Assembly (NCBI GenBank): GCA_038153405.1
Contig: JAYOYH010000065.1
Span: 1-15,153 of the forward strand
Source: Gemmatimonadota bacterium
Lineage (GTDB): Bacteria; Latescibacterota; UBA2968; UBA8231
Length of the DNA: 15,153 bases
Direction: 5' to 3'
Part shown: piece after piece, positions 1 through 15,153 of the stretch
Numbering within the stretch: the first letter of the stretch is position 1
Layout of the letters: each line of letters opens with the position of its first letter
Position numbers and translations under genes: made by a program
Notes under the pieces: generated by a model
The model's database searches: none
Told to the model about the DNA's origin: nothing
The model's input: only the letters and a program-made list of their open reading frames with translations

Positions 1-1
1 C

Positions 2-403
2 CCGCGTGCGCGCCGTGATAGCCGCCTCGACGGCGGCCGGGTCAATGTTGTAGGTCCCTGGCTCTATGTCTACGAAAACCGGAATGCCGCCCACCAGAGC
101 GACGGCACTAGCCGTGGCCACAAAGGTGTAGGAAGGCACGATGACCTCGTCGCCGATGCCGACGCCGGCCGCTTCCAAGGCGATTTGCAGCGCGGTAGTT
201 CCGCTGCTGACGGCGATGCCAAACTCGGCTTCCTGATACTGGGCAAAGGCCTTTTCAAAGGCTTCCAAGCGCTCGCCCATAAACCAGCGCCGGCTGTGCA
301 ACACATCGGATAGAGCCTTCTCTTCGCTCTCGCCGAAGATGGGCCAGGCGGTGAACGGTTTGGTACGCACGGGCGTGCCGCCGCACATAGCTAACTGAGA
401 CAT
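2..403 (-). CDS. DegT/DnrJ/EryC1/StrS family PLP-dependent aminotransferase (RifK/AHBA-synthase-like), N-terminal part; runs off the left edge
   Basis: Not in the ORF track. Manual translation from ATG at 403: MSQLAMCGGTPVRTKPFTAWPIFGESEEKAL...AVSSGTTALQIALEAAGVGIGDEVIVPSYTFVATASAVALVGGIPVFVDIEPGTYNIDPAAVEAAITARTR. SGT-AL, GDEVIVP-TF-AT and PVFVD motifs are diagnostic. GGAGA RBS at 411-415. Confidence 0.93.
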   Translation of the reverse strand, partial: MSQLAMCGGTPVRTKPFTAWPIFGESEEKALSDVLHSRRWFMGERLEAFEKAFAQYQEAEFGIAVSSGTTALQIALEAAGVGIGDEVIVPSYTFVATASAVALVGGIPVFVDIEPGTYNIDPAAVEAAITARTR

Positions 404-496
404 AGTGTATTCTCCGCTCGAATACGTGGCAGGATAGGATGCCAATGGGTGGGTTGACTGGCGCACGGCCGAACCTAGGGCAGACAGCTGAGAGGG

Positions 497-1786
497 TCAA
501 GCGGTGCGGTCCTGGGTGCGACGGAACGATTCGGGTATGATCGCGCGCACGGCGTCGATAATGAGGTCCTCAACGCCTTCGTCAAAGCGGTTGGGTAGAC
601 CAAAGTACGGCGTGGCGCCGCCGGCTTCGTAGCCGCCTTCGCGCCAAACGCGGCGCGAGGGAATATAGCCGGGGAAATCGTTGGCATAGGCGCCGACCCA
701 CAGGCGCTGTGCTGCGTAGTATTGACGAAGCCTGAGTGCGTAGTCGGCGACGACTTCACCGGAAAAAAAGACCATGGATAGCGCGTCGCCTAGCGTCCAC
801 ACTTGAATGGGGTAGGAGTAGGATTGGGGCAGCGTTTGGCCGCGCTCGATGTGCGCCAGCCATTGGGCGGCGTGGTAGCCTACGGCGCCGCCCTCAGCGC
901 TACGCGCCCGCCATTCATCAGGCGTGGGCAGCGCGTCGTAGGGCAGGTCCACGCGGCATGTATGCGATGCGAGTGTGCCGCCGATGGGTGCGAACGAGCC
1001 GGATAGCCGATGACGCACCTCGCTGGCGACGTTGGCCGCGTGTTGGCGCACGTAGTCCATGCCGGTGCGCGGAAAGGGGTTGGCGTCTGCGGCACAGCCG
1101 ATCGAGACAAAGGCCGTCGCACCGGGGAAATCAGCCTCGATAAGGCGCTGCGCGTGACCGGCCCAGTCGCCGCTGACGTAGTTGTCTTCGCCGCTCAACG
1201 TCGTGCAGTGACAGGCATAGCTGAGCCAGACGCCGCGCAGGTTGCCGGCGCTGTCGTCGATGCGCAGCAGCGGCATGGCGTGGTCCACGGGTCCGACCTG
1301 GGCGCGCCGGTTGGCGGCAAAGCCCACCTGGCCGGTAGCGTAGGACAAGGAGCCGGCAAAGCGGTCGTTCAAGGCCTGCGCACCCACGTCGACCAACGCC
1401 GCTATGAGCTGTTCGGTATAGCGGTCTATACGAGACTGGTGATCGGTGGGAATATCTTCGCTAAAGAGCATGGGCAGGGTCTCGCTGAGACAGGGGCCCG
1501 TATGCGTATGGCTGTAGCAGACCAGCAGGTGTTCGGCTATGAGTCCGGTGCGTGCGTGCAGCTGGGCGGCCACGCGATCCTTCAACCACTGGTTTATACC
1601 GCAGTTTTCCAGCGTTAGCAGGAGCAGGGGGCTGTGCTCACCCAGCGCCAACGCCTTGGCGTAGAGGCGCGTTTCGATCTGTGCCGTCTCTTCGCGTCGG
1701 CTGCCGTAGCCGCTCAGGCGAATCGGTTCGGTCGGCGTTATATCGACTGTGGCAATGCCAATGGAAAGGGGTGCTGCGTATGCCAT
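497..1786 (-). CDS. Neutral/alkaline non-lysosomal ceramidase N-terminal-domain family protein (metal-dependent hydrolase, substrate unknown)
   Basis: 429-aa ORF with VDITP, L-GYG-R, SHTHTGP, YACHCTT, SGDW-G, GC-AD-NP, GEVV, GYIPS and GGYE motifs. GGAGA RBS upstream; no obvious signal peptide. Confidence 0.85.
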   Translation of the reverse strand: MAYAAPLSIGIATVDITPTEPIRLSGYGSRREETAQIETRLYAKALALGEHSPLLLLTLENCGINQWLKDRVAAQLHARTGLIAEHLLVCYSHTHTGPCLSETLPMLFSEDIPTDHQSRIDRYTEQLIAALVDVGAQALNDRFAGSLSYATGQVGFAANRRAQVGPVDHAMPLLRIDDSAGNLRGVWLSYACHCTTLSGEDNYVSGDWAGHAQRLIEADFPGATAFVSIGCAADANPFPRTGMDYVRQHAANVASEVRHRLSGSFAPIGGTLASHTCRVDLPYDALPTPDEWRARSAEGGAVGYHAAQWLAHIERGQTLPQSYSYPIQVWTLGDALSMVFFSGEVVADYALRLRQYYAAQRLWVGAYANDFPGYIPSRRVWREGGYEAGGATPYFGLPNRFDEGVEDLIIDAVRAIIPESFRRTQDRTA

Positions 1787-1971
1787 GCCGTTCTCCGCGT
1801 TAAATGCAATCGGTTGGCCAGCCAGCCGAGTCGTTGCAAGGCGGCCAGCGGACAGGTGGTGCTGGTTAAGTATACCGGATTCTGCCGGTGATCATCTTCG
1901 GGGTGAATGCACTCGTGGGGCGCGCCAAACGCCTTGCACTGGCGAAAGTCATCTTCGCGCAAATGAAGAAA

Positions 1972-2143
1972 AGGGCCAGCTGCTGTCGAAGATTCGCCAG
2001 CAGCACAGCGCAGCGGAACTGCCCATTATTAGAGCAACGGCCGGCGCGTTTGCCGACCAGCACAGCGAATGCATCGAGGCCGGCATGGAGACGTTTTGGC
2101 AATGGCCTTCCCAACAGAGCAACTATTAAGTATTCTATCTTAA
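1972..2143 (+). pseudogene. Remnant of the C-terminal half of a receiver (REC) domain, frameshifted
   Basis: Reads GQLLSKIRQQHSAAELPIIRATAGAFADQHSECIEAGM, then after a 1-nt shift near 2090 DVLAMAFPTEQLLSILS*. Fits the REC pattern IR...LPIIA-TA-AF--D---C-EAGMDD-L-KPF--EQL. N-terminal acidic pocket and phospho-Asp absent. Confidence 0.65.
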
Positions 2144-2162
2144 TGTGAGCGTCGAATATAAT
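2125..2162 (+). promoter_or_regulatory. Candidate promoter/operator of the porin operon
   Basis: Perfect TATAAT at 2157-2162, poor -35, and an inverted repeat ATTAAG-N8-CTTAAT (2125-2144) over the -35 position. Confidence 0.35.
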
Positions 2163-2278
2163 ATGCTTATGGCAACGTATTGTCGGATAGCAATTTATTG
2201 CTGGCGTCTGCTGTCGCATGGCGAAGCGGTTAACCGGAGTGCGACCTGTGTCCCACTTAAGCGTAGAGAGGCTTAACA

Positions 2279-3298
2279 TTGGTAAAAATAGTAGATTGCC
2301 GCCGTTGGCTGCTGGCGATTGTGGTTTTCTCGTGCTTGCAGCAGCCGGTAACGGCGCAAAATATTGGCACGGTGCTGCAGGTATCCAGCACGCGGGCAGA
2401 AGATGGCGGAGCCTTCACGTTTGGGTTTGACCGGGTATTTGTATCGGTGCGATCGAAGGTGAACGACTACGCCTCGTATAAGGTTATGGTCGATTTCAAC
2501 AAGCAGTTTAACAAGTGGAAAGATGGACAGGCGGATATCGCCGATTTCGTCGACCCCAAAGACGGCGAAACGGCGACCTTTCTCAAAGATGCGGTGATCA
2601 CCTTTAAATTACCTGACTACGCTCGTTGGAGTCTGTCCGTGGGCAAATTTAAAACGCCCGCCGGCATGGAGTTTGCCGCGCCGGCGCCCAAATTGGACTT
2701 CGTCAAGCGCGGTTTGGGACAGGGGTTGGTATTTGATCGCAATCCCGGCCTTATGGTTGAGGGCACGGGCCTGAGCTCCGTGGGCATTGGCGTTGCCGCT
2801 GGCCTCTTCAATGCCGGGCCGAACAAAGCCAACGGCATTGGCTCTTCAGCAGAGGGCGATTACACGCTGGTCGGCCGGGTCAGTGCCGATCCGAGCAAGC
2901 AGCTGCACGCGCAGGCCTATTGGGGACGCGCCATGACGAGCATTGCCAACCAGAGCCCGGTGCAACTGGTGGGTATAGGAACTCAAGTGGGCGTTGGGCA
3001 TTCTATGAAGCTAAAAGGCGAATATATGCTGCGCGACGATCCCAACAACGCAGCGGCAGATGGCTCCAATGCCTACGTCCAGGCGACGTATCAGATCAAG
3101 CCGAGACTGCAGGCCGGACTCAAGTGGGAAATGTTTGACGTGACGAACAAGGCGCAGGATCGCACGGACCTGACGTTCGGCCTCAGCCTATTTTCCGACG
3201 CAAAAAAGCCACAGGCGGCCAAAATCCAGATCAACTACGTAGCGTCGGATGCAAAAGGCAAAGATGCCATACAACTGCTTTTTCAGGCATCGATGTAA
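2279..3298 (+). CDS. Outer-membrane porin, OprO/OprP (phosphate-selective porin) superfamily-like
   Basis: TTG start behind GAGAGG, signal peptide ending VTA-Q, LKDA-I, VGKFKTPAGME and LDFVKR (cf. GQFK-PF-LE / FMER of OprO/P-like porins), alternating amphipathic beta strands. Confidence 0.75.
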   Translation: MVKIVDCRRWLLAIVVFSCLQQPVTAQNIGTVLQVSSTRAEDGGAFTFGFDRVFVSVRSKVNDYASYKVMVDFNKQFNKWKDGQADIADFVDPKDGETATFLKDAVITFKLPDYARWSLSVGKFKTPAGMEFAAPAPKLDFVKRGLGQGLVFDRNPGLMVEGTGLSSVGIGVAAGLFNAGPNKANGIGSSAEGDYTLVGRVSADPSKQLHAQAYWGRAMTSIANQSPVQLVGIGTQVGVGHSMKLKGEYMLRDDPNNAAADGSNAYVQATYQIKPRLQAGLKWEMFDVTNKAQDRTDLTFGLSLFSDAKKPQAAKIQINYVASDAKGKDAIQLLFQASM

Positions 3299-3349
3299 GT
3301 CTGTCCAACACGGGTAATTTTAATGGCCGTTGGCCAAGTTGAGGTCCAT

Positions 3350-4183
3350 GTGAAAACCGCTATACTGTGCGCACTTCTATCCGTGCTGGTTTCATCGGCT
3401 TTGCAAGCGCAAGAAAAATCAGAGACCCTGACGTTTGGCATTGTGCCGCAGCAGTCGGCTGCGGTGCTGGTCAAGCTATGGGCGCCCATTTTGCAGTATG
3501 TGGGCGACCGGGCCGACTGCAAATTGGTATTCAAAACCGCCAAAGATATCCCTGCGTTTGAGGAGCGCTTACTCGCAGGTGAGTACGACATGGCCTACAT
3601 GAATCCGTACCACTACACGGTCGCGCACGAGAGACAGGGCTATGCGGCCTTTGCCAATCAGTCCAACAAAAAGATTCGCGGTATTATCGTGGTAAAAGCG
3701 GACAGCCCGATCCAAGAACTGGCCGAATTGGATGGCACCGAAATGTGCTTTCCCAGCCCGGCGGCATTTGCCGCCTCTATTGTCCCGCAGGCCTATTTGG
3801 GCAAGCAAAACGTGCAGATCCGGCCCAAATACGTTTCGTCGCACGACTCGGTGTATCGCAACGTCGCGCTGGGGCGTTACGCAGCCGGGGGGGGCATTGA
3901 GCGCACACTTGCCAATGTAGACGAAGACGTGCGAAAGGCTCTGCGCGTTCTCTACAAGACAGAAGGGTACACGCCGCATGCCATTGCCGCCCATCCGCGG
4001 ATCGATAGCGCGCGGGTGGCCGCCGTAGGCGCGGCGCTATTTGCCATGGCGAGCGATTCGCTAGGGACGTCGCTGTTGCAGGGTTTGAAGTTCGATGGCG
4101 TGCAGCCAGCGCACAATGCGGACTGGGACGACGTTCGTGCACTGGAAATAGAAAAAGTGTTGGGCACGGTTCTTCGGCAATGA
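3350..4183 (+). CDS. Phosphate/phosphite/phosphonate-type (PhnD-like) periplasmic substrate-binding protein
   Basis: Signal peptide (LQA-Q), LTFGIVPQ, YD-AYMNPYHY, GIIVVKADSPI--L-EL-G, SHDSV, PHAIAAHP motifs. In-frame GTG at 3350 behind GAGGT preferred to the ATG at 3323. Confidence 0.88.
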   Translation: MKTAILCALLSVLVSSALQAQEKSETLTFGIVPQQSAAVLVKLWAPILQYVGDRADCKLVFKTAKDIPAFEERLLAGEYDMAYMNPYHYTVAHERQGYAAFANQSNKKIRGIIVVKADSPIQELAELDGTEMCFPSPAAFAASIVPQAYLGKQNVQIRPKYVSSHDSVYRNVALGRYAAGGGIERTLANVDEDVRKALRVLYKTEGYTPHAIAAHPRIDSARVAAVGAALFAMASDSLGTSLLQGLKFDGVQPAHNADWDDVRALEIEKVLGTVLRQ

Positions 4184-4244
4184 TTCAGCTCTTTGGCGGG
4201 TGGTTCAGCGTGTTTATATAGCAGTAAATGACCTATAGAATCCT

Positions 4245-6548
4245 ATGTCCTTCCGAATAAAAACCATTTTGGGCGTCGCCCTAATCGAAGCAATCCTTCT
4301 GGTCTTGCTAGTCACAGAAGCACTCAACTTTCTCTACGCTACAAATTCTCAAGCTCTGTTTGATCGCGCCCACTCGACGGCAAAACAATTTTCTCTCTCA
4401 GTGCAGAACGACGTTATATCGGAAGATTTGGCCTCTTTAGAGTCTTCTGTAGCGGCATTATACGAGTCAAAAGACGTTGTGTATTGCCGCATATTGAGTA
4501 CGTCGGGTGGCATTCTGGCTGAATCGGGCGATGCGCAGCTATTGGCAGTGTCTTTTGACGAAGATACGGCCATTGGCGACGTGACGGACGGCGTGCTCGA
4601 CGTGCAGATACCCGTTGAAGTTGAAGGGTATGCCTTTGGCGAAGTTCAAATGGGCTTTTCTACGGCACCGTTAACCGAGATCATAGAAAAATCCCGCACG
4701 GAAATGGTGTTTATCGCCTTGGCCGAGATGGGTCTGGTAGCGCTGTTTTCATTTTTCTTGGGCACGTACTTAACCCGACAGCTACAGGCTTTGCGCGATG
4801 GAGCCCAGCGCCTGGCTGAAGGCGCATTGGGCACGACGCTTCCCGTATCGGGGAGCGACGAGTTGGCCGATACGGCGCGCAGCTTTAACCACATGTCCAC
4901 AGAGTTGTTGCGCTCCGAGCAGCAGATTTTGGAACAGTCTCAGCTGTTTCAAGATTTAGTGCAAACGTCTTCGGACTGGTTTTGGACGACGGATACAGAC
5001 GGGCGTATAGACAGCCTATCGAGTGGTTTTTACGCCTCGGTGCGTGCACCCGAAAAAGATATTATTGGCAGAGACTGGTCCGATGTTATTGACAATGCAT
5101 CGAGCGATCAGAGTGGACAGGCCAAACGCGTGCAGCGCTCAGTGGAAGAACAACAAGTATTTCGCGATATCATTTACAAGTGGACAGATCACAGCGGGGC
5201 AGAGCGCTGGATAAATCTGAACGGAAAGCCTGCTCAGGATGCGGAAGGTCAGTATGTTGGTTTCCGCGGCACCGGCAGAGATGTGACAGACGCTGTCGTG
5301 CGCGAGCAGCAACTCACACAAGCCAATCTGCTGGCGCGCGAGGGCCTGCGTGCGAAAGATCGATTTCTGGCGAATATGAGCCACGAACTGCGCACGCCGC
5401 TCAACGCCGTATTGGGCATGCACGAACTGCTGCGCAATGCCAATTTGACGGATCAGGAACGCGTCTACTTAGACAATATCAAGGGTGGCGGTAAGGCGTT
5501 GCTCAATATTGTGTCTGAGATATTGGAAGTCGCGCGATTGGAAGATGAGCAGATCGAACTTATCGAACAGCCCTTTGACCTGGTCAGTCTGGTTGAGCAA
5601 GCCGTGGAGCCATTTGAAGAGAGTGCTCGCCAACGAAACAATACGCTGCGCTGGCAGATCGAACCCAGAGAAAGCGTCACGTTAGTGGGGGACGTCGCTC
5701 GTTTGCGCCGAGTTATAACCAATCTGCTGAGCAACGCCACCAAATTTTGCTACGATGGCGCAATAGAAATAACAACTAAATTACTGCCGGTCTCTGGGTA
5801 CGATCACGTTCTATTGCACTTTGCTATAAAAGATACGGGCATAGGTATTGCCGCCGGCGATTTAGATCGCGTATTTGACCCATTTTTTCAGGTTGATACC
5901 AGTTCGAAACGCGAATACGGTGGAACGGGACTGGGATTGACCATTATGAAGCGCATCGTCAATGGTATGCAAGGAAAGTACGGTATCGAATCGAAACCCA
6001 GAATGGGCACAAGCGTTTGGTTTGAAGTGCCTCTTACCAGGTCGGTCGATACCTCCGAAGATGTCGAGATAGACAGCGGCGATTACGAAGCGCGCATTGC
6101 CAACCGCGGAGGAGGACCGCTGCGGATTCTCGTAGCCGAAGACAACCCGATGAACCTGCTACTGATCCGAAAGATATTAGAGCGAACCGGTGCAAAGGTA
6201 ACGGTTGCAAACAATGGGCAAGAAGCCGTGCAGGCGGTGCAACAAGATCTGTTCGATATAGTCTTGATGGATATACAGATGCCCGAGATGGATGGCATAG
6301 AAGCGACACAGTATATACGAAGACACATTGCCAGCAAGAGGCAACTGCCCATTCTCGCCGTGACGGCCAATGCCATGGATGGCGATCGCGAAAAATATTT
6401 CGCCGCTGGCATGGATGGCTATGTTTCAAAGCCAATCGACAAAAACGTTTTATTCAGCGAAATCGAGCGTTTGGCACCAAGCGATAAAAAGGATTCGACT
6501 CTGCCCGATGCGTCTCGCCACCGTAGCGGTAATTCATCTGACTCTTAG
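4245..6548 (+). CDS. Membrane-bound hybrid sensor histidine kinase (TM-periplasmic domain-TM-HAMP-PAS-HisKA-HATPase_c-REC)
   Basis: Two hydrophobic segments, HAMP (DELADTARSFNHM), PAS (SDWFWTTD...GFRGTGRDVT), H-box ANMSHELRTPLN, N-box NLLSNATKF, G1 DTGIGI, F-box FDPFFQ, G2 GGTGLGL, REC (AEDN, LMDIQMPEMDG, TA, SKP). Confidence 0.97.
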   Translation: MSFRIKTILGVALIEAILLVLLVTEALNFLYATNSQALFDRAHSTAKQFSLSVQNDVISEDLASLESSVAALYESKDVVYCRILSTSGGILAESGDAQLLAVSFDEDTAIGDVTDGVLDVQIPVEVEGYAFGEVQMGFSTAPLTEIIEKSRTEMVFIALAEMGLVALFSFFLGTYLTRQLQALRDGAQRLAEGALGTTLPVSGSDELADTARSFNHMSTELLRSEQQILEQSQLFQDLVQTSSDWFWTTDTDGRIDSLSSGFYASVRAPEKDIIGRDWSDVIDNASSDQSGQAKRVQRSVEEQQVFRDIIYKWTDHSGAERWINLNGKPAQDAEGQYVGFRGTGRDVTDAVVREQQLTQANLLAREGLRAKDRFLANMSHELRTPLNAVLGMHELLRNANLTDQERVYLDNIKGGGKALLNIVSEILEVARLEDEQIELIEQPFDLVSLVEQAVEPFEESARQRNNTLRWQIEPRESVTLVGDVARLRRVITNLLSNATKFCYDGAIEITTKLLPVSGYDHVLLHFAIKDTGIGIAAGDLDRVFDPFFQVDTSSKREYGGTGLGLTIMKRIVNGMQGKYGIESKPRMGTSVWFEVPLTRSVDTSEDVEIDSGDYEARIANRGGGPLRILVAEDNPMNLLLIRKILERTGAKVTVANNGQEAVQAVQQDLFDIVLMDIQMPEMDGIEATQYIRRHIASKRQLPILAVTANAMDGDREKYFAAGMDGYVSKPIDKNVLFSEIERLAPSDKKDSTLPDASRHRSGNSSDS

Positions 6549-6671
6549 CCGTCGAGCGGCGCGTTGGGCAAATTTCAGACCCGCCTGCGCCTCGTCGTAG
6601 CCGATACCCGATGATAGCTCGACATCCCGTTCTGCATCCTTCTTCGAAAGCTCTTCAATAGTCCATTGGTT

Positions 6672-6708
6672 CAGACGCGCCCCGTGCTCCTAACGGAGGG
6701 CGCGTCTG
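6672..6708. terminator. GC-rich stem-loop between convergent genes, likely terminator
   Basis: Perfect 11-bp inverted repeat CAGACGCGCCC (6672-6682) / GGGCGCGTCTG (6698-6708), 26 nt past the protease stop. No strong U-tract on either strand. Confidence 0.55.
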
Positions 6709-6734
6709 CGATGCACTCCCGGTTTGTTGCGCGC

Positions 6735-9700
6735 TTATCTGAGCAACAGCATTTTGCGCGTTAATTTGCTGCTATCCATTCCACTGACGTAGCGCAGTTC
6801 ATAAAAATACACGCCCGTAGCTACTGGGCGGCCCTTGGCATCTACGCCGCGCCACCGGGCTTCATACCGGCCCGCTTGGTGCTGCTCGTCGACCAGCGTA
6901 ATGACGTGCTGCCCGGCCAAGTCGAAAATCTGCAGCCGGACTTGCCCTGCCGTAGACAGATCGTAGGGAATGGCCGTTTCCGGGTTGAAGGGGTTTGGAT
7001 GGTTTTGCCCCAGTGCGTAATGCGTCGGCCGACTTTCTCCTTCTTCCTCGACGGCCGTCGGCAATATCCCAGACTCGTCATTGACTGTAAAGGCGTGCGG
7101 AGACTGCGTGCCGCTTATGAAGAGCAGGGGCTCGCTAGTAGCACTTAGGCGATCGTCGCTCAGCGGTAGCCGCCACAGGTTGGCAGAATACACATCGCCC
7201 TCTTCGCTCCAGTATTCAAATACTACTTCGCGGTCGTTGTTGATAAAACGCGGAAAGGTGAATATGGCATCCGGGAAGGCGACGAGCTCACCCGAGGTGC
7301 CCGCGCATCGATCGAGGACATATACGGTTGTATTCGGCGCATTGTCGTCGACGACCTCGTATAATAAGCGGCAGTCGTTTATCTCGCCGTCGACGATCTG
7401 TCCCGAGAACGACGGATTGGCCAAGTGAAGTCCCGGCGGCAGCGGGGGTGACCACGAGGTCACTACTCCGTTGGCCGGGTTAACTATTTTGATATCCCAG
7501 AAGTCAATTGTACCGCCGTCAATGCCGGGCAGGCTATTATACGAGTCAAAGACGACGTATTGCCCGGCTGCGTCCCACTGAATGGCGTCGGCAAAGCGCG
7601 TCGCATAGGTGATTACATTGGATGCCGTAGTCGTGTGGTAAAGCTTGATCGCCCTGTTGTTGTCGGCGTTGTCCAAGTCGAAGAAGAACAGCGTCGAGTC
7701 TTCGTAGACCGTGGTTGCGATCAGCCGATTGCCGTCGGGTGAGAGAGCGATTGAGCCCCAATCGCCGTCGTCGTTGAGGACCTCTTCACCCTCGCCATCG
7801 CTGCCTATGAAACGCAGGTTGTTGTCGCTGTCGATAAAGAGCAGGAAACGGCCGTTCTGAGGTGCCGTTATCGCATTGCCGGTCTCGGCGAATACCTGCG
7901 TATCTGTGAGGAGTGTGCGAAATGGAGGCTCGTTGGGGTCGACGCCCGGTTTGGCGATAAACAGGCTGTTATCGCCGTCGTCGGTCGCACCCACGGAGGC
8001 CACCCAGAAGTTGCGTTCGTCTATCGGCAGTGGCCCTTCTTCGCTCGTTTCTTCGGTTGTTTCTCCAGCCGTTTCCTCGCTGGTTTCCTCGTCCGGCACG
8101 ACAATGCCCACGCCGTCAAAGGCATTGCGCACGGCTTGTAGTACCTGTGGATCGTCTGCGTAGAGGTCGGTAGCCGCTCGCTCGGCCGCCAGTCGACAGT
8201 CGACGAAATTGCTGGTGGGCGTCAGATAGTTAGTGAGCAAATGGTAGTAGATGCGCGCCGTGCGCTCTCGTCCAATGGCATCGGCCATGAGAAACGCCGC
8301 GCGGTTGGAAATACCGCTATTTATGTGCACGCCGCCGTGGTCCTCATCTTCGGGCAGGTCGGCATATTCATCCATATGGGCTGGCTGCCAGCCGTTGGGA
8401 TGGTCGCCGTTATGGGGATCTGCTAGGTTGCGCAGCGCGCCGGATGGGAAGTAGTCGGTCTTTACGATGTCTTCGCCGATCAGCCAGTCTTCATCGTCAA
8501 TCATGGCGCCAAAAATATCGGCAATCGACTCGTTGAGCGCGCCCGACTGAAAACGGTATTCGAGATTGGCCGTGTGTTCAATGACGCCGTGCGCCATTTC
8601 GTGGGCCGCCACGTCGAGGCTGCCGGACAGTGGCTCGAATACGCCGCCGCCGTCGCCGTAGGCCATGTACACGCCGTTCCAATAGGCGTTGGCCATTGAC
8701 TCGCCGTCTTCGTCCGTTACGTGCACGACCGAGATCATATTGCCGCCGATGCCGTTGATGCTATTGCGCCCGTGGATGGTGTAAAAATAGTCGTATATCT
8801 TGGCCATATTGGCGTGGGCCGAGACGGCGGTCGGATCGTCAAAGCGGTTGGAATTGCTCGTGAGCGCCGTCAGGAACTCTCCATCGGGCTGCAGCGTCCA
8901 GTGCAGGTTGGTATTGTCGACGATGTTCAGCGAGCTGGCAGTAGACGCGGTTGCGTCGATTAAGTAGTACGCATCGCCGCTCTGAAATGTGTTGAGCTGG
9001 ACTTCTTGGCCGTCGAGCCCAACGCCCGATCCCATCGTGGGACCGTCGGTCGGCGAGAATTGATATTTGTCGAGTACCTCGCCGCTGAGGGCATCGACGA
9101 AGTAGCGCCAACGCTCGTAGGTGTTTGGACGCATCTCCACCTTCCATACCAAATGGGGCATGCTGGTCGGCGTTTTGCTCCATATGTAGAGTTCGGCACT
9201 GGGTCCGTCGTAGGCGAGCAGTTCCCGCAGACCTTGGCTCAGGGGCTGCACCTGTTTGCCGTAGGCGCTCATGGCACTGGCAATGGCCTGTGCCGTCGTG
9301 ATGGCGGGCTCCACGCTGGAAAGGCGCGCTGGCGTGGGTCGATAGCGACCGTTGATGGCAAACAGCCCCTGATCGCCGCTGACGTGGCCGACCAAGGCCG
9401 CGCCCCAAATCGGCACGTCTCTGTAGCGCTGCGCAAACGTGATGTGTTCGCGTCCGCCGGCGTCGGTGCGCTCGCGCTGGACGGCTAGCTCGAGTCGGGG
9501 CTGGCGCAGGTTAAAGAGGCCGGCATTGGCTTCGACGAAGCTAAGCACCTGCTCCGCGCTCGACAGGCCAGAGGCCCGTTTGGCCGCGCCGGCCCCGCCC
9601 TTGGCCTGCATAAATATGGGCGTGCTGGTGGTCTCGTCGATCCACAGATCCCATTCGCCCTGTTCGGTTACGGCAACTTTGCCCGCGCTGGCTTGGGTTG

Positions 9701-9944
9701 GTAGGACCAACGATTGCCCGCCGGATAGGGTTTGGTGGCGAATGGTCGACGACGGCTGGCTGGCGCTGGTTCCAGAACCGCCAAAGGGCGTCAGGTTGAG
9801 CGAACGAGTTGCGTTAGCCGTCGATTGCGTGCGACCGGCCTTGGATATCTTGTTGGCGTAGCCCGAGGTGGGTGTAACCGACAGGGTAGCTAGCAGCAGA
9901 GTGGATGCCAACCCCACTGCGCGCGTAATAGAGCGATCTCGCAT
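6735..9944 (-). CDS. Secreted M4 (thermolysin-like) zinc metalloprotease with FTP/PepSY propeptide, beta-propeller-like region and FlgD-Ig/T9SS-type C-terminal sorting domain
   Basis: Signal peptide; propeptide (HITFAQRYRDVPIWG, YFVDALSGEVL); NAYWNG, YGDG, LDVAAHEMAHGV (HExxH), SGALNESIAD, DHGGVHINSG; ALSPDG repeat region; C-terminus LGQNHPNPFNPET-I-Y-L...GVYFY...TRKMLLLR. GAGGA RBS. Confidence 0.95.
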   Translation of the reverse strand: MRDRSITRAVGLASTLLLATLSVTPTSGYANKISKAGRTQSTANATRSLNLTPFGGSGTSASQPSSTIRHQTLSGGQSLVLPTQASAGKVAVTEQGEWDLWIDETTSTPIFMQAKGGAGAAKRASGLSSAEQVLSFVEANAGLFNLRQPRLELAVQRERTDAGGREHITFAQRYRDVPIWGAALVGHVSGDQGLFAINGRYRPTPARLSSVEPAITTAQAIASAMSAYGKQVQPLSQGLRELLAYDGPSAELYIWSKTPTSMPHLVWKVEMRPNTYERWRYFVDALSGEVLDKYQFSPTDGPTMGSGVGLDGQEVQLNTFQSGDAYYLIDATASTASSLNIVDNTNLHWTLQPDGEFLTALTSNSNRFDDPTAVSAHANMAKIYDYFYTIHGRNSINGIGGNMISVVHVTDEDGESMANAYWNGVYMAYGDGGGVFEPLSGSLDVAAHEMAHGVIEHTANLEYRFQSGALNESIADIFGAMIDDEDWLIGEDIVKTDYFPSGALRNLADPHNGDHPNGWQPAHMDEYADLPEDEDHGGVHINSGISNRAAFLMADAIGRERTARIYYHLLTNYLTPTSNFVDCRLAAERAATDLYADDPQVLQAVRNAFDGVGIVVPDEETSEETAGETTEETSEEGPLPIDERNFWVASVGATDDGDNSLFIAKPGVDPNEPPFRTLLTDTQVFAETGNAITAPQNGRFLLFIDSDNNLRFIGSDGEGEEVLNDDGDWGSIALSPDGNRLIATTVYEDSTLFFFDLDNADNNRAIKLYHTTTASNVITYATRFADAIQWDAAGQYVVFDSYNSLPGIDGGTIDFWDIKIVNPANGVVTSWSPPLPPGLHLANPSFSGQIVDGEINDCRLLYEVVDDNAPNTTVYVLDRCAGTSGELVAFPDAIFTFPRFINNDREVVFEYWSEEGDVYSANLWRLPLSDDRLSATSEPLLFISGTQSPHAFTVNDESGILPTAVEEEGESRPTHYALGQNHPNPFNPETAIPYDLSTAGQVRLQIFDLAGQHVITLVDEQHQAGRYEARWRGVDAKGRPVATGVYFYELRYVSGMDSSKLTRKMLLLR
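8037..8096 (-). repeat. Degenerate 12-bp tandem repeat (5 units) encoding an acidic EET(S/A/T) linker
   Basis: Plus-strand units ttcttcgctcgt / ttcttcggttgt / ttctccagccgt / ttcctcgctggt / ttcctcgtccgg; encodes PDEETSEETAGETTEETSEE. Confidence 0.8.
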
Positions 9945-10103
9945 AGTTTTAGTCCTCTGCTTATGGAACGTGTTCTACGGTTAAAGCCACTGCGTCGACA
10001 AGCACCTGACCAGCCGCAGCAGTAGTGCACGGCTCAGCGCCGCTACGGTTTTCACGTAGCAATGCACTAGGGCGTCTTTTCACTTGGCTAATATGTTTTT
10101 CGG

Positions 10104-11114
10104 TTACCCGCTGGCCGTTTGCACTATCGGCAATTCGGGTATGTACTGGTAGCTCGGTTCCGTTTTCTGTCGCTTGAGAATACCGATAATTTCTTTCCAC
10201 GCCGCAAACAGCCCTACCGGCGGCGCAGGCGATTCGTGGCGAATGGCCGCGTGCAGCTTGCCCAGGTTGTAGCACGGTACACCGGCGTACATGTGGTGTT
10301 CGATGTGGTAATTCATGTGCCAGTAGAGAAAGCGCACGAGCGGGCTGAGTATCACCGTGCGCGTGCAGAGTCGGAAATCCGGCACGTCGTCCTGCAGGCC
10401 TGCGTGCTGCGTGCCGTTGCACAAATAGCGCAGCCAGCCGCCGTAAAACGCGCCGCCCGTCGTCAGGACCGGCACCAGCCACAGGCCGTTGTAGAGCCAG
10501 AAAGCGACCCAGGTCGCATGGCCTGCCAATAAAAAGCGCGCCCACCAAATCAGGCGCTGTCGTTTGTCGGCGTCTCCGATCGGAAAGAGGTAGATCGACC
10601 ACTCACCTCGAACGATGCCCAGCGCGTGCAGGACGTGGGTCTCGATCGTTGCGTAGAATCCCAAGGGGTCGAAAAAACCTGTTTTGAGAAAGCCCTTGAG
10701 ATTTAGCTGCGCGGGCAGTACGACCTCCAGATCATCGGGTTGGTGCAGCGTATATTTGTGATGCTCGGCGTGGCTGGTCCAGAAGTAGACGTGGCTGCGC
10801 CAGACGAAGAAGCTGTGCAGGCGCAGGAAAAACCAGTTGAGCCAGCGCGTTTTGAACACCGTGTTATGGCAGAGTTCGTGCGTGGAGTTAAATAGAAAAA
10901 CATACACCGTGCCATAGGCCAGCAGAGCGGGCAAGAGCAGATACCAGCGGTCTTGTACCTGCCAGGTGAGCGCACCCAGCACACCGAGCAGACTCCAGTG
11001 GCCTAGCGTTTGCGCCAGACCCTTCCAATCGCTCCGCCTGTTTAGATGGCGCATGAGTTGGCGATCGACCGGGGTGCGGTACCAGCCGATCGTCCGCGCG
11101 CTAAGTTCCGTCAT
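10104..11114 (-). CDS. Membrane fatty-acid-desaturase-family di-iron oxygenase, rhizopine-oxygenase (MocD)-like subgroup
   Basis: His boxes HELCH, HAEHH, YHIEHH plus TQHAGL and PCYNL-KLH; N-terminal WYRTPVDR-LM--L--RSD recalled as typical of MocD-like proteins. Start at ATG 11114 behind GGAGG (336 aa), not the 11540 of the ORF track. Confidence 0.88.
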   Translation of the reverse strand: MTELSARTIGWYRTPVDRQLMRHLNRRSDWKGLAQTLGHWSLLGVLGALTWQVQDRWYLLLPALLAYGTVYVFLFNSTHELCHNTVFKTRWLNWFFLRLHSFFVWRSHVYFWTSHAEHHKYTLHQPDDLEVVLPAQLNLKGFLKTGFFDPLGFYATIETHVLHALGIVRGEWSIYLFPIGDADKRQRLIWWARFLLAGHATWVAFWLYNGLWLVPVLTTGGAFYGGWLRYLCNGTQHAGLQDDVPDFRLCTRTVILSPLVRFLYWHMNYHIEHHMYAGVPCYNLGKLHAAIRHESPAPPVGLFAAWKEIIGILKRQKTEPSYQYIPELPIVQTASG

Positions 11115-11231
11115 CGCTGCGTCCTCCGTCCCAAAAATATAGCGAAACTGGCGGCGCAGCCCCAATCCTCTATGCGCTTGGCGGGAACCACACACTACGA
11201 TTCGTGTGCCGTACGTCCCGATGAGCGGCTC

Positions 11232-11267
11232 CGTCAATTGACGCTCTCGCCGGGCTTTGCCTATACT
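11232..11267 (+). promoter_or_regulatory. Sigma70-type promoter of the dioxygenase operon, with palindromic -35
   Basis: TTGACG (11238-11243)-N18-TATACT (11262-11267). The -35 is half of the perfect palindrome CGTCAATTGACG (11232-11243). Confidence 0.6.
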
Positions 11268-11370
11268 TTCCGCTGGTAGGAGAAACCCATCGCGAGGGAG
11301 ACCTCCAATCGCGCCGCGCCAGCCAGCGCGCGGTACTCCGTGGACCCCAATCTGCCGAAGCGAGACCTCT

Positions 11371-12207
11371 ATGTCTGAGTCGATTGTCGTGTCGGCCGCC
11401 GAACGCGCCGCCGGGCGTCTGAGCGAGAAGCACGCGCTACGGGCGATAGCGGCCGTCAGGGAAGAGGGTATCGTCGTGCTCGAAAACGCCGTTGGAGACG
11501 ATGTCCTCGACGCGCTGCACGAGCGCATGCTGGCCGACACGCACGCGCTGGTGGCCGCACGCGATCGCGGCGCGTCCGTGTCGGGCTGGAAGCGCGGTCA
11601 CCTGCAGCAAAAGCCCCCGCACCATCCGCCCTATATCTTTCGCGACGTCGTTGCTAACCCCTTTGCCATACAGGTAACGCACGGCGTGCTGGGCGACGGC
11701 CTGTTTAATGCGTTCTATAGCGGCAACACCAATCTGCCCGGCAGCGAAGCGCAGCCTCTGCACCGCGACGCACAGCCGCTGTGGCCCGACGGGGACGGCG
11801 ACCATCCGGCCACGACGCTGGTCGTCAATGTTTCGCCCATCGACGTGCATCCCGACAACGGCAGCACCGAAATCTGGCCGGGCTCGCACTGGGTCGGTGG
11901 CGAACTGACCGAAGCGCTGATTGAAGCGCGCCGCGCCGTCGCGCCGCCGGTGCGCGTGCAGGCGCCCAAGGGCAGCATCGTCGTGCGCGATATCCGCCTC
12001 TGGCATCGCGGCGTGCCCAACGTGTCCGATCAGGTTCGCCATATGATTGCCCTAGTGCATCAGGTCCGGTGGTTTCACCGCACGCACACCCTGCGCTTTC
12101 AAACGGGCTGCGAGGCAGAATTTGAAAGCGAACACCTCGATGCCAACGCCGAATTTGTCGACGCACCGCCCGACTATCTCTTCGGCCCTCACCCTAACCA
12201 CTCCTGA
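11371..12207 (+). CDS. Phytanoyl-CoA dioxygenase (PhyH) family Fe(II)/2-oxoglutarate dioxygenase, KanJ-like
   Basis: H-x-D (LHRD) and distal His (LWHRG); GH-QQ-PP, YSGN-NLPGS--QP-H-D, NGSTE-WPGSH, RRAVAPPVR and WHRGVPN match kanamycin B dioxygenase KanJ as recalled. Start placed at ATG 11371, downstream of the promoter. Confidence 0.9.
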   Translation: MSESIVVSAAERAAGRLSEKHALRAIAAVREEGIVVLENAVGDDVLDALHERMLADTHALVAARDRGASVSGWKRGHLQQKPPHHPPYIFRDVVANPFAIQVTHGVLGDGLFNAFYSGNTNLPGSEAQPLHRDAQPLWPDGDGDHPATTLVVNVSPIDVHPDNGSTEIWPGSHWVGGELTEALIEARRAVAPPVRVQAPKGSIVVRDIRLWHRGVPNVSDQVRHMIALVHQVRWFHRTHTLRFQTGCEAEFESEHLDANAEFVDAPPDYLFGPHPNHS

Positions 12208-12212
12208 GGCGT

Positions 12213-13085
12213 ATGCGCACACAGCACGATCCCACTACCAATACGATTGCCATAGAAGGCTTGGCCCAGCCCGTTTCGATCTTACACGTAACGGACAGCC
12301 ACATGGCCCTAGCCGACGAACGCGATCCCGAAGCTCTGCCGCACGCAGCGCACTACGGGGCGCTGTTTCGCGAACGCACGCCCGACGGCGTAGAACCCGA
12401 AGCGCTCTTTTCTCAGGCACTGGCGCACGGCGAGGCGCACGGCGTAGATGCCACGGTGCTGACGGGCGATATCATTCACTTTCCCGCCCACGCCGGCCTC
12501 GAACGCATCGCCGAGGAAGTAGGGGCCCTGTCGGCGCCCTATCTGTATACGCTGGGCAACCACGACTGGCACTTTCCGCACCTAGACTGGAACGATGCCA
12601 CGCGCCAGGCGCACTACGCGCGCTTCGCGTCGCTGACGGGCGGGACGCCCGCGGCCCAGGCGCTCGACGTGGGCGACGTGCGCCTGATCGCGCTGGACAA
12701 CAGCACGTATCAGATAACGGACGCGCAGCTAGCGTTTCTGCGGCAGCAGCTCGACGCGCCGGGTCCGTGCCTGCTCTTTGTGCACATTCCCATCGCCCTG
12801 CCGACGCTGATTCCGGACGTGGTCGAGGTGTGGCGCGAGCCCATTGTTATGGGCGCCGACGGCTGGTCCGAGGAAGGCCGCGCCAAGTGGAAGGTGGAGC
12901 AAAACGAAGCCAGCACTCAGGTCTGCTTGGACTTGGTAGCGCGCGCTGAGAATCTGGTGGGCATCTTTTGCGGCCACGTTCACTTTGACCACGTCGACCG
13001 GGTGCACGACGGCTGCTATCAGTATGTGACGCAGCCGGGCTTTGAGGGGGCACACCGGACTATTCGCCTGGCGCCGTTGGATTAG
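12213..13085 (+). CDS. Calcineurin-like metallophosphoesterase
   Basis: All five motifs: HVTDSH, LTGDI, LGNHD, FVHIP, CGHVH. Starts 5 nt after the dioxygenase stop. Confidence 0.92.
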   Translation: MRTQHDPTTNTIAIEGLAQPVSILHVTDSHMALADERDPEALPHAAHYGALFRERTPDGVEPEALFSQALAHGEAHGVDATVLTGDIIHFPAHAGLERIAEEVGALSAPYLYTLGNHDWHFPHLDWNDATRQAHYARFASLTGGTPAAQALDVGDVRLIALDNSTYQITDAQLAFLRQQLDAPGPCLLFVHIPIALPTLIPDVVEVWREPIVMGADGWSEEGRAKWKVEQNEASTQVCLDLVARAENLVGIFCGHVHFDHVDRVHDGCYQYVTQPGFEGAHRTIRLAPLD

Positions 13086-13114
13086 GCGTTATACACCGCA
13101 CGAAAGGATAGGCT

Positions 13115-13450
13115 ATGCAGCGCGTCGCATTTGTGATGCACGTTAAAGAAGGCCAAGAGGCCGAATACGTTCGCCGCCACCGGGAAGTATGGCCGCAGGT
13201 ATTGGCCGATTTGGAGCGGGCCGGCGTCGAGCAGATGAACATCTTTATGACCGGTCGCCAGCTCTTTCTCTACATGGAGGTGGACGACTATGCCGAAGCA
13301 GCGCGGATCCTCGGCGAGTGTCCCGAGTCCGTGCGCTGGGAAGCGTATATGGAACCCATTATGGAAGACGCTGGCGGGCAGGACTACGATCCAGAAAATC
13401 CCTATCCCGACAGCCTGCCCGAAGTCTTTTTCTGGCGCAAAGGAGCGTAA
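13115..13450 (+). CDS. L-rhamnose mutarotase (RhaM/YiiL) family protein
   Basis: R-AFVM-V, EY-RRH--VWP (Tyr18, catalytic His22), W-AYM and C-terminal L-EVF. Confidence 0.88.
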   Translation: MQRVAFVMHVKEGQEAEYVRRHREVWPQVLADLERAGVEQMNIFMTGRQLFLYMEVDDYAEAARILGECPESVRWEAYMEPIMEDAGGQDYDPENPYPDSLPEVFFWRKGA

Positions 13451-13453
13451 ACT

Positions 13454-14227
13454 ATGGCCGTACTCGAAGGACAAGTGGCCCTGATTACCGGGGCCGGCTC
13501 AGGCATGGGCCGGTCGACGGCCGAACTCTTTGCCCAGGAGGGCGCGCGCGTCGTGGTCGTCGATATCGACGAAGCCGGCGGCGAGCAGACCGTGGCGACG
13601 ATCCGCGCGGCCGGCGGCGAGGCGATTTTTACGCGCGCCGACGTGGCCAAGGCCTCCGACGCCGAGGCGATGATCAGCTTGGCGATCGAGACCTACGGCC
13701 GGCTCGACGTTCTCCACAACAACGCCGGCGTGGTATCGGTCAAATTTCTAGAAGACATGTCGGAGGAAGAGTGGGACTGGCTGATGGGCGTCAACCTCAA
13801 GTCCATCTTCTTAGCGGTCAAATACGCGGTGCCGCATATGAAAGCGCAGGGCGGCGGCTGCATTATCAACACCGGCTCGACCGGCAGCTTTATCGGCCAG
13901 TACCGGACGCCGGCCTATATCGCCTCGAAGGGCGGCGTGATCCAGCTGACCAAGACGCTGGCGCTAGACTACGCCGAGCACAAGATCCGCGTCAACGCCA
14001 TCTGTCCGGGTACGGTCGACACGCCGCTGGTGCGCCAGCACATCGAGGGCAGCCCCGATCCGGCGCGCGCCGAGGCGATCGAAAAGCAGCTCATTCCCCT
14101 CAAGCGCTTTATGCAGCCCGAAGAGATCGCCCACGCCGCGCTCTATCTGGCCTCCGCGCCGGCCGGCGGCATCACCGGCTCCGCACTGGTCATCGACGGC
14201 GGCACGCTGGCCGGCTACGTCGACTGA
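13454..14227 (+). CDS. Classical short-chain dehydrogenase/reductase (SDR), probably NAD-preferring
   Basis: TGAGSGMG, VVVDI (acidic residue after beta-2), NNAG, Ser, YIASK, IRVNAICPG, ITG---IDGG. AAGGAG RBS inside the mutarotase 3' end. Confidence 0.96.
   Translation: MAVLEGQVALITGAGSGMGRSTAELFAQEGARVVVVDIDEAGGEQTVATIRAAGGEAIFTRADVAKASDAEAMISLAIETYGRLDVLHNNAGVVSVKFLEDMSEEEWDWLMGVNLKSIFLAVKYAVPHMKAQGGGCIINTGSTGSFIGQYRTPAYIASKGGVIQLTKTLALDYAEHKIRVNAICPGTVDTPLVRQHIEGSPDPARAEAIEKQLIPLKRFMQPEEIAHAALYLASAPAGGITGSALVIDGGTLAGYVD
14114..14154 (+). repeat. Direct repeat copy 1 (41 bp, within SDR 3' end)
   Basis: cagcccgaAgagatcgcccacgccgcgctctatctggcctc; 40/41 identical to 15049-15089. Confidence 0.95.
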
Positions 14228-14265
14228 CGAGCAGCGCTTTGTGCGATGAATGGCGGCAGAGGCGT

Positions 14266-14730
14266 TTATTCGGCACCGGTAGGTCGGGTGCCTAGCTCTT
14301 CATCCGGCGACCGCCGAAACGGGTTGATGACGACCAATCCGTCCATATCTTGTCCGTCTTGCAGGTCTTCTGTCAGCAGTCGTTCGGCGCCGCAGAGTTG
14401 GGCGGCTGCGACAATCTGCGCATCCCACCACGAAAGCGCATACCGCATCGCCAGCTCTCGGGCGCGTCTCAGCACCTGGCTGTCTACCGGCACCGGATCC
14501 CACGTCAGCAGGTCCTCAACGTCGCTCCACGCGGCGTCCTCGTTCAAGCCGGGTGTGAGCTTCCTAGTTACTGTGACAAAATACTCGTTTAACACCTGAA
14601 TGCTCAGACGCCCGCACCGCTGCGACCAAAGTCGGTCGAGCCAGTCCTTGGCTATGGGTTGCTTCTGTGATTCGGAGGAATCTCTGGCATAGACCAAGAG
14701 ATTGGTATCAACGAAGTAGGTCGCGCTCAT
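14266..14730 (-). CDS. vapC: PIN-domain (VapC-family) toxin
   Basis: Four PIN acidic residues: FVDTN, VLNEY, SWWDAQI, TEDLQ, plus INPF. Likely start MSATYFVD at 14730, overlapping the antitoxin 3' end by 23 nt. Confidence 0.92.
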   Translation of the reverse strand: MSATYFVDTNLLVYARDSSESQKQPIAKDWLDRLWSQRCGRLSIQVLNEYFVTVTRKLTPGLNEDAAWSDVEDLLTWDPVPVDSQVLRRARELAMRYALSWWDAQIVAAAQLCGAERLLTEDLQDGQDMDGLVVINPFRRSPDEELGTRPTGAE

Positions 14731-14950
14731 GCAGTTCATCTCGTCTGGGATAGGATGTGCCCGATGCCTTGAGTTGTTGAGCGCTGCGGTCCATAAAGCG
14801 CCTTTGGGCGCGCTTATATTCGAGCTCGTTGCTCATCTTTTTTTTCACCAGGTCCCCGACGAACTGAGAGACGCTGGTATCGTGCTCCGCGGCCCACACG
14901 CGCACCCAGCGGGCTACCTCGTCCTCGAGCGTAATAGTGACATTTCTCAT
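14708..14950 (-). CDS. Ribbon-helix-helix (CopG/DUF6364-like) antitoxin
   Basis: MRNVTITLEDEV...AAEHDTSVSQFV RHH pattern and C-terminal RDELHER typical of VapB partners; AGGAG RBS at 14961-14965; directly upstream of the PIN gene. Confidence 0.88.
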   Translation of the reverse strand: MRNVTITLEDEVARWVRVWAAEHDTSVSQFVGDLVKKKMSNELEYKRAQRRFMDRSAQQLKASGTSYPRRDELHERDLLR

Positions 14951-14988
14951 GGTGTTACGGCTCCTAAGATAGGCGGGGGAGTATTAAT

Positions 14989-15021
14989 CACGAAAATAGT
15001 GTAACACGAGAATCGTGTCAA
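14989..15021 (-). promoter_or_regulatory. TA promoter with two tandem palindromic operators
   Basis: Minus strand TTGACA (15021-15016)-N17-TATTTT (14998-14993). Palindrome ACACGA-gaa-TCGTGT at 15004-15018 and a degenerate copy CACGAAAATAGTGT at 14989-15002, period 16 bp. Confidence 0.8.
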
Positions 15022-15048
15022 ATAATTTGCCCCAACGCCGCCCCTTTC

Positions 15049-15089
15049 CAGCCCGAGGAGATCGCCCACGCCGCGCTCTATCTGGCCTC
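15049..15089 (+). repeat. Direct repeat copy 2 (41 bp, orphan duplicate of SDR coding sequence)
   Basis: cagcccgaGgagatcgcccacgccgcgctctatctggcctc; encodes QPEEIAHAALYLAS as in the SDR, one synonymous GAA>GAG difference. Confidence 0.95.
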
Positions 15090-15107
15090 GATGCCCTGTG
15101 CGCAGGC

Positions 15108-15152
15108 TTAAGAGGCCAGCGAGCGGAAGAAGTCGCGGAAGAGAATCGTCTC
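15108..15152 (-). CDS. Probable 3' end of a CDS entering from the right edge, product unknown
   Basis: Open frame ETILFRDFFRSLAS* with mostly G/C third positions, stop at 15108-15110. Too short to identify. Confidence 0.4.
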   Translation of the reverse strand, partial: ETILFRDFFRSLAS

Positions 15153-15153
15153 G

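Follow-up and report, generated by a model that had tools for sequence, protein, structure and literature searches.

A putative PIN-type toxin-antitoxin pair, likely inserted with duplication of a gene end, in a Latescibacterota genome

Background

Insertion with long target duplication was defined for restriction-modification (RM) genes (Furuta 2010, PMC2853133), and according to the accessible part of that paper it concerns inserts of <20 kb that contain R and M genes, are bracketed by a repeat of >30 bp and come with no other mobile element. The repeats often lie at the starts or stops of genes, mostly in competent species, and those of H. influenzae match at 44-46/46 bp; a cycle resembling that of a virus, in which the unit invades, is amplified and is released, was hypothesised, the release without evidence, and the mechanism of insertion was left open (PMC2853133, same part). 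Chromosomal islets consisting of a toxin-antitoxin (TA) pair only have been described in Photorhabdus in 2026 (PMC13617665) and also in PMC7167474, and the available text of these papers proposes that their spread occurs through homologous recombination at the genes flanking them. For lone TA pairs between core genes, PMC13617665 calls the origin poorly characterised; its main text has 0 occurrences of 'direct repeat', and duplicated ends of protein genes were not seen in the available part. TA pairs with long gene-end target duplications are furthermore undescribed in the open-access literature searched.

Campbell-type insertion-duplication and ends-in gap-repair integration are known mainly from laboratory constructs, with single crossover and gap repair being the models for additive integration, and elements are known both of phage type, with duplication of a protein gene's 3' end (e14 at icd), and with comM as their target. 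The PIN domains of the toxins that recur below are RNases.

The toxin-antitoxin insert and its repeat

The window, by which we mean the whole stretch of DNA analysed (15,153 nt), comprises bases 1-15153 of the 21-kb contig C65 in the 4.86-Mb source genome (G000). It holds a same-strand gene run of PhyH, metallophosphoesterase, rhaM and SDR, of which the SDR gene is the last member, and the features around the end of this gene are as follows.

13454..14227, + strand: intact classical SDR gene, 257 aa (Pfam adh_short_C2, E 2e-64, residues 13-250)
14114..14154, + strand: repeat copy 1, SDR codons 221-234; 41/41 with G004 and L027, 40/41 with G006
14155..14227, + strand: native SDR tail, 23 codons plus stop; 70-71/73 nt identical to three orthologues without this TA
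14257..14266, + strand: 10-nt remnant directly next to the toxin stop codon, with the same letters as the TA-free intergenic region has at its start
14266..14730, - strand: PIN-domain (VapC-like) putative toxin, 154 aa, ATG at 14730 (PF01850, E 3e-10)
14708..14950, - strand: putative antitoxin, 80 aa, overlapping the toxin start (DUF6364, E 3e-5, below cut-off)
14993..15021, - strand: sigma70-like promoter, -35 at 15021-15016, overlapped by an inverted repeat at 15002-15020
15022..15048, no strand: 27-nt junction between TA promoter and displaced copy, without a match in two aligned TA homologues
15049..15089, + strand: repeat copy 2, a displaced, non-coding and drifting SDR 3' remnant; variant allele in X7 and X9
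15090..15098, no strand: 9-nt scar, first 7 nt the reverse complement of the end of the TA-free intergenic region
15108..15153, - strand: convergent right-hand gene (xylose-isomerase-like TIM barrel, 279 aa), of which the 3' end with the stop lies here and the rest past the scaffold gap

The insert thus amounts to two genes in a span of 935 bp (<20 kb), enclosed by a unique direct repeat of >30 bp that is not a tRNA, and no tRNA genes were found in the window. Between the repeats lie the last 23 SDR codons with the stop (14155-14227), a 38-nt spacer, the PIN gene, the gene for its 80-aa partner and a promoter, which matches the content given in the original prediction, namely the SDR codons and a TA operon with its own promoter. 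The layout is that of a type II, VapBC-like TA system in that a small antitoxin gene lies upstream of and overlaps the PIN gene, both being served by one promoter with an inverted repeat (15002-15020) that is likely the operator. The pair had been labelled RHH-PIN, and of this label the PIN half stands, whereas the antitoxin matches nothing but DUF6364, and that below the cut-off, so that the RHH half is not borne out by the domain search; the same antitoxin-type partner is found upstream of PIN homologues, and an RHH-type fold is presumed for it. The putative toxin has 28 related loci in GTDB genomes, the closest relative being in a Latescibacterota genome, which makes this phylum the probable one of the host, and no relatives were found in viral contigs by a single-protein search. 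Homology of the TA with G011 and L028 stops at or slightly past the -35 box, and no conserved att-like end is seen among the aligned TA homologues. The RNA runs contained only 0.05-0.10 of the words.

As originally claimed, the two copies of the repeat are identical at 40/41 nt (A14122 versus G15057) and spaced 935 bp apart. A search of the whole genome gave two copies of the 41-mer only, by which a dispersed repeat is ruled out, and the next match, 31/35 on C30, is probably to an SDR paralogue. Scanning metagenomes with the 32-nt identical core gave 2 loci, both TA-free. Copy 2 is bridged by single contigs in runs X7 and X9, which belong to two studies besides the possible source study, and in both it has the substitutions 15054 C>T and 15057 G>A (the latter to the SDR letter) as well as a deletion of 1 nt at 15065; since this allele has the SDR letter at 15057, copy 2 formerly agreed with the SDR at the one mismatch and is now drifting. 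The metagenome evidence covers 8 of 24 runs, all examined as contigs, and the tables of X3 and X4 are identical and apparently one data set. We can conclude that the repeat is real and that copy 2 is confirmed as no artefact of assembly.

The SDR aligns with PDB 7djs through residue 253, and since its tail is 70-71/73 nt identical to that of orthologues without this TA, the stretch between the repeats is native and replacement of the tail by an element-borne one is ruled out. On the other side the right-hand gene has its stop codon at 15108-15110, and the window stops at a scaffold gap of 100 N, whose 55-bp overlap begins at 15099. An 8-bp inverted repeat (15082-15089 / 15112-15119) is made up of the end of copy 2 and the last codons of the right-hand gene, and a hairpin formed from it (15082-15119) has the scar at 15090..15098 inside its loop. 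The G006 version of the right-hand TIM-barrel gene (G006:C89, L022:5735-7182) appears broken, with deletions inside it. Elsewhere in the window, positions 6735-9944 encode a 1069-aa thermolysin-type (M4) peptidase with a C-terminal FlgD-Ig-like domain.

Alleles without the insert

Among the 41 genomes searched, close SDR orthologues were found in G004 (97%), G006 (94%) and G020 (78%). The empty site that the original prediction called for does exist, with TA-free alleles in G006, L027 and X2. A complete SDR is followed by 77 nt of intergenic DNA and the right-hand gene in G006, which is of the same genus, and by 8 nt and the right-hand gene in the metagenome contig L027, and a contig from X2, a run of the same study, joins 14228 to 15099 across 43 other letters. 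The TA-free alleles rejoin the right flank at 15097-15099, and every one seen has one repeat copy and the full SDR tail, with differing intergenic DNA. In X2 the TA-free contig has a depth of 8.8 versus 11.2 and 5.3 for the TA contigs, and in X11 the TA-free state dominates with a depth of at least 152 for the SDR and 3-4 for the TA, all of these depths being rough and summed over organisms. G004 has a different, larger and partly unassembled cargo at the SDR site; at the end of its contig (G004:C145:1-435, L002) low-GC small ORFs lie past the SDR terminator hairpin, one of them ribbon-helix-helix-like by eye. The TA insert is thus polymorphic, and the SDR is native and whole.

It had been argued that loop-out between the repeats would truncate the SDR and that losing the TA would therefore break the gene. 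The arithmetic is right, as the product would be a 240-aa SDR ending in YLASMPCAQA*, but the generalisation is not supported in view of the intact-SDR TA-free alleles in X2 and X11 and applies only to a crossover within the eroded remnant. Moreover, the same samples commonly contain such alleles, so that any lock is likely circumvented by replacement via the flanks, and a lock at the level of the population is unsupported. The joint of 14154 to 15090 that loop-out would create is absent from the contigs of 8/8 runs, a weak test of little power and no evidence of absence, since the 32-bp identical core collapses and breaks contigs.

The empty alleles carry the 73-nt tail and intergenic DNA that are missing to the right of copy 2, and they can be reconciled with a duplication only by a later deletion there. 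Two short remnants point to where this may have happened. The intergenic region of the G004/X11 type begins with the same 10 nt that stand at 14257-14266, a length reached by 9/5000 shuffles, and X11 shows a loose end at this remnant, which would be the left insertion point; 15090-15096 is the reverse complement of the last 7 nt of the same intergenic region, and the scar at 15090..15098 would be the deletion junction. The original duplication may accordingly be placed at 14114-14266, or ~153 bp across the SDR stop, of which the right copy would then have lost the tail and terminator region, the ~153-bp figure being a reconstruction from the 10-mer and the 7-mer since no long-duplication allele was seen at the SDR site. 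G004 itself probably carries a decayed copy of the SDR end, as a candidate lies right of its cargo and precedes native-type intergenic DNA; in an anchored alignment the candidate scores above 2000/2000 shuffles, and in an unanchored local one it is not significant (95/1000).

Similar arrangements at other loci

A scan of the genome for direct repeats returned 77 repeat rows, 15 of them not coding on both sides, and yielded two further TA cases (C21 and C59), which is what the original prediction had proposed to look for in the form of other TA pairs flanked by duplications of a neighbouring gene. Intragenic repeats, paralogues or overlaps at scaffold gaps account for most of the 170 rows of direct repeats genome-wide, and C12, C16, C22, C48, C68 and similar cases were excluded as paralogues. 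The loci with a comparable architecture are the following.

G000:C21:28487-29871 (L056): MazE/PemK pair with a PhyH-HEAT gene on one side and, on the other, 188 bp copied from the 5' part of that gene
G000:C59:5483-6786 (L057): Phd/PIN pair, with comM versus a 142+80-bp copy of its leader/5' part
G000:C31:46933-47969: non-TA cargo, a 265-aa gene, with a 504-aa gene and then a 51-bp copy of its 3' end plus stop
G000:C29:52939-55724 (L064): tRNA-Asp with a 185-bp duplicated 3' region surrounding a transposase-like gene and an MNT/HEPN pair
G000:C42:25-66 and 1704-1745 (L063): AbrB/PIN pair between 42-bp RNA-gene-like 3' ends (79%)

The two sibling loci on C21 and C59 are cleaner examples than the worn window locus. 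Among 7 same-genus genomes they have exact single-copy empty sites, for C21 in G001 and for C59 in G004 and G002. On C21 the displaced copy retains the native leader and the working PhyH-HEAT gene has a new leader and N-terminus, which is the pattern of a single crossover. The comM copy on C59 has an internal deletion, and the displaced copies at both loci have ATG changed to CTG in G000, so that some loop-outs there would harm the gene too; erosion hence renders some loop-outs harmful at all three loci. The 504-aa gene on C31 is sulfatase-like by eye, and the repeat on C42, whose contig begins just before it, was not called as a gene by ARAGORN.

The 5' end of comM is a repeated landing site and comM is left intact. 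Phd/PIN pairs occur there in G000 and G001 (L076), a different TA (RelE/HTH) with a 114-bp duplication in G005 (L079), and an eroded comM copy past an older adenylate-cyclase gene in G004 (L077). The insertion is common to G000 and G001, with a TA that is 98.5% identical and the same junction, and yet over 124 nt the repeats of these two genomes have 7 species-shared and 0 position-shared differences. Given the shared cargo and junction, the repeat copies must have recombined or been copied from the host, and this concerted evolution is evidence of recombination at the repeats, although it is silent on their first origin. In a Pseudomonadota MAG (L030:2001-5371), furthermore, three different TA modules form an array in which every module has behind it a copy of a sugar-transferase gene's 3' end, stop included, the left ends of these copies being variable.

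Some further arrangements were noted along the way. At G000:C47:6069-8833 (L060) a 686-aa transporter-like gene stands between the gene for a Phd-type antitoxin and a PIN gene, which looks like the splitting of a TA operon or its capture of a gene, and in three genomes (L090, L093, L095) a VapBC-like pair lies upstream of an AlbA_2/RecG-C/Fic-like gene, of whose 5' part a 37-111-bp decayed copy is present.

Bracketing was counted by one procedure throughout (1.5-kb flanks, E <= 1e-3) and is enriched at TA loci. In the genome 4/13 TA gene blocks are bracketed, three by pieces of protein genes and one by an RNA-gene-like end, with the TA list being non-exhaustive, C21 having entered it through its repeat, and C11, C6 and C70 having been screened and kept off it as not TA pairs. 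The 300 small genes that served as controls, drawn from 434 eligible ones, include 5 with a repeat of any kind and 0 with a non-coding copy. The PIN matches found independently in the genome are bracketed in 3/6 cases, the SDR locus among them, and searches of the genome for ParE_toxin and HicA gave no matches. In the family, 7/30 PIN loci are bracketed (the best match per genome in 30 genomes, out of >600 matches, several with short flanks) versus 0/30 rhaM loci, which are largely orthologues; as 3/7 of the hits are one locus type, they represent ~5 independent events. A spanning repeat occurs in 5/28 homologues of the window toxin, among which L030 is a clear case of the architecture and L047 a probable one.

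Origin of the duplication

The reading we favour, with a probability of roughly 60%, is an insertion with long target duplication and a TA cargo, brought about by host homologous recombination without an integrase and followed by erosion. Donor DNA consisting of the SDR end and the TA, either a circle or an ends-in fragment, would have entered the cell, probably by transformation, and a single recombination into the SDR end would have produced the order gene - TA - spare gene end. The spare copy would later have lost its last 73 nt, together with the terminator region, to a deletion, after which 41 bp and the 9-nt scar were left, and the TA-free state is likely restored by allele replacement via the flanking genes and not by loop-out. 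On this reading the PIN-type TA pair was acquired horizontally, and the second 41-bp copy is likely what erosion has left of a target duplication that was once longer; we infer the donor form, the RecA dependence and the original repeat length. The unrelated targets, the use of 5' and 3' ends, the variable lengths and the hybrid copies on balance speak for homology-driven additive integration plus erosion, and the genome encodes ComEC and DprA. This reading has to contend with the facts that no allele with an intact long duplication was seen at the SDR site, that the empty allele there differs from the exact single-copy form, that the circle is only postulated and could not have been revealed by contigs, and that most TA loci are unbracketed (9/13 TA blocks in the genome, 23/30 family PIN loci and 23/28 PIN homologues).

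The proposal of an integrase-free TA insert is supported, and the insert is polymorphic. PF00589 matches lie on C19, C52, C54 and C36 and none in the insert or C65, and the three tyrosine recombinase genes of the genome sit away from the bracketed TA loci. We consider it unlikely that a larger element, site-specific for the SDR 3' end, once restored the gene and then shrank to the TA with the 41-mer as an eroded attR. Such an island would find parallels in the TA pair at the RNA-gene-type duplication on C29 (tRNA-Asp, 185 bp, transposase-like gene), in the larger, unassembled cargo of G004 at the SDR site and in the known phage-type 3'-end duplicators (e14 at icd) and comM-targeting elements. 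Erosion of larger elements into TA-only islets has moreover been proposed in the available text of PMC13617665. However, probes made from the three tyrosine recombinases, which are blind to serine and distant integrases, hit 0/15 bracketed or allelic loci and 0/19 loci around homologues of the right-hand gene, the SDR tail within the repeats is native, the targets are unrelated genes used at 5' and 3' ends with variable lengths, and toxin relatives are absent from viral contigs in the single-protein search. It is less probable still, and indeed rather improbable, that 41 bp of the nearby SDR came into the right junction by a local replication accident after the arrival of the TA, be it a tandem duplication plus deletion or template switching at the hairpin of the terminator. 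The inverted 7-nt scar and the 8-bp inverted repeat (15082-15089 / 15112-15119) are suggestive of template switching and copy 2 is nearly identical to the local SDR and unlike the paralogues, but the strong association with TA pairs, the existence of exact empty sites for C21 and C59 and the reuse of the same sites by other cargos would all be left unexplained.

The original prediction itself likened the repeats to attL/attR duplications and took the insert for a minimal element, mobilised in trans or by short-homology recombination, whose loss would break the SDR. Read as a cassette with a 41-bp att core that a site-specific recombinase acting in trans has moved and that truncation of the SDR keeps locked in place, this is very improbable, even though no integrase is present in cis, the repeat matches at 40/41, residues 235-257, alignable with solved SDRs up to residue 253, would be lost by loop-out, and the lost ATG in the displaced copies of C21 and C59 makes some loop-outs gene-damaging. 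The empty alleles keep the SDR and none equals the single-copy product of loop-out, the tail is native, copy 2 is drifting and has even suffered a 1-nt deletion, and TA-free alleles are common in the same samples; the 41-bp repeat is therefore no working att site. Mobilisation in trans by a site-specific recombinase is likewise not supported, given the unrelated targets and TA homologues that share nothing past the -35 box, and neither an att-like motif common to the sites or TA homologues nor any shared motif among the repeats of different sites was seen. An artefact of assembly, which the 100-N gap at a distance of 64 bp from copy 2 might bring to mind, has next to no probability, since contigs of two other studies bridge copy 2 with variants of their own and the gap overlap starts at 15099, the exact rejoining point of the alternative alleles.

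Homologous recombination may conceivably also run in the other direction, and we tentatively suggest enzyme-free 'gene-end circles', in which recombination between the repeats would free the TA together with the gene tip, RecA would let the circle re-enter the same gene elsewhere, and a decay ratchet would fix the TA. Neutral decay of the spare copy would then make excision damaging to the gene, by a truncated SDR here and by the lost ATG at C21 and C59. If such circles are real, insertion with long target duplication needs no nuclease in the cargo, since TA toxins do not cut DNA, and they would offer a general route to TA-only islets, in this lineage and beyond, that needs no mobility gene. 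The bracketing signature can be quantified, with about a quarter of the sampled family PIN loci having it, and together with the hybrid copies and the concerted repeats it leads to testable predictions.

Comparison with known systems

The architecture of additive integration by Campbell-type or ends-in events, gene - insert - spare fragment with a whole gene, is also that observed here, including the hybrid copies of C21 and the host-type copies of comM, with the difference from the laboratory constructs that the natural circular or gapped donor is here a postulate. A displaced gene-end fragment beyond the insert is likewise found in integrase islands and prophages such as e14 at icd, but in contrast to these no integrase was found by PF00589 in the insert or its contig, the tail is native, the targets are unrelated and the repeat lengths vary, and unlike in attL/attR elements, loop-out at the core would give the 240-aa SDR and not any empty allele seen.

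With the TA-only islets, as far as the available text of PMC13617665 and PMC7167474 describes them, the locus has in common that a TA stands alone between core genes, is patchy among strains and lacks mobility genes, whereas the islets are flanked by 24-28-bp palindromes like Tn3 res sites and not by a gene-end duplication as at the SDR locus. The closest likeness is to the insertions of Furuta 2010, with which, judging from the accessible part of that paper, the SDR locus shares a small selfish gene pair, the lack of a mobility gene, a unique repeat of >30 bp and a target gene left intact. It differs from them in its cargo, a PIN gene and a DUF6364-like partner in place of the R and M genes, and in that the duplication is eroded, for which reason the empty allele at the SDR site is not the exact single-copy form. 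The idea of a double-strand break made by the cargo, which that part of the 2010 paper contains, does not carry over to a TA cargo without a restriction enzyme, and the TA cargo thereby speaks against the proposed role of a restriction cut by the cargo. The SDR-locus insert thus works like the Furuta class without being an RM member, and the TA pair would represent a new cargo for a known kind of insertion.
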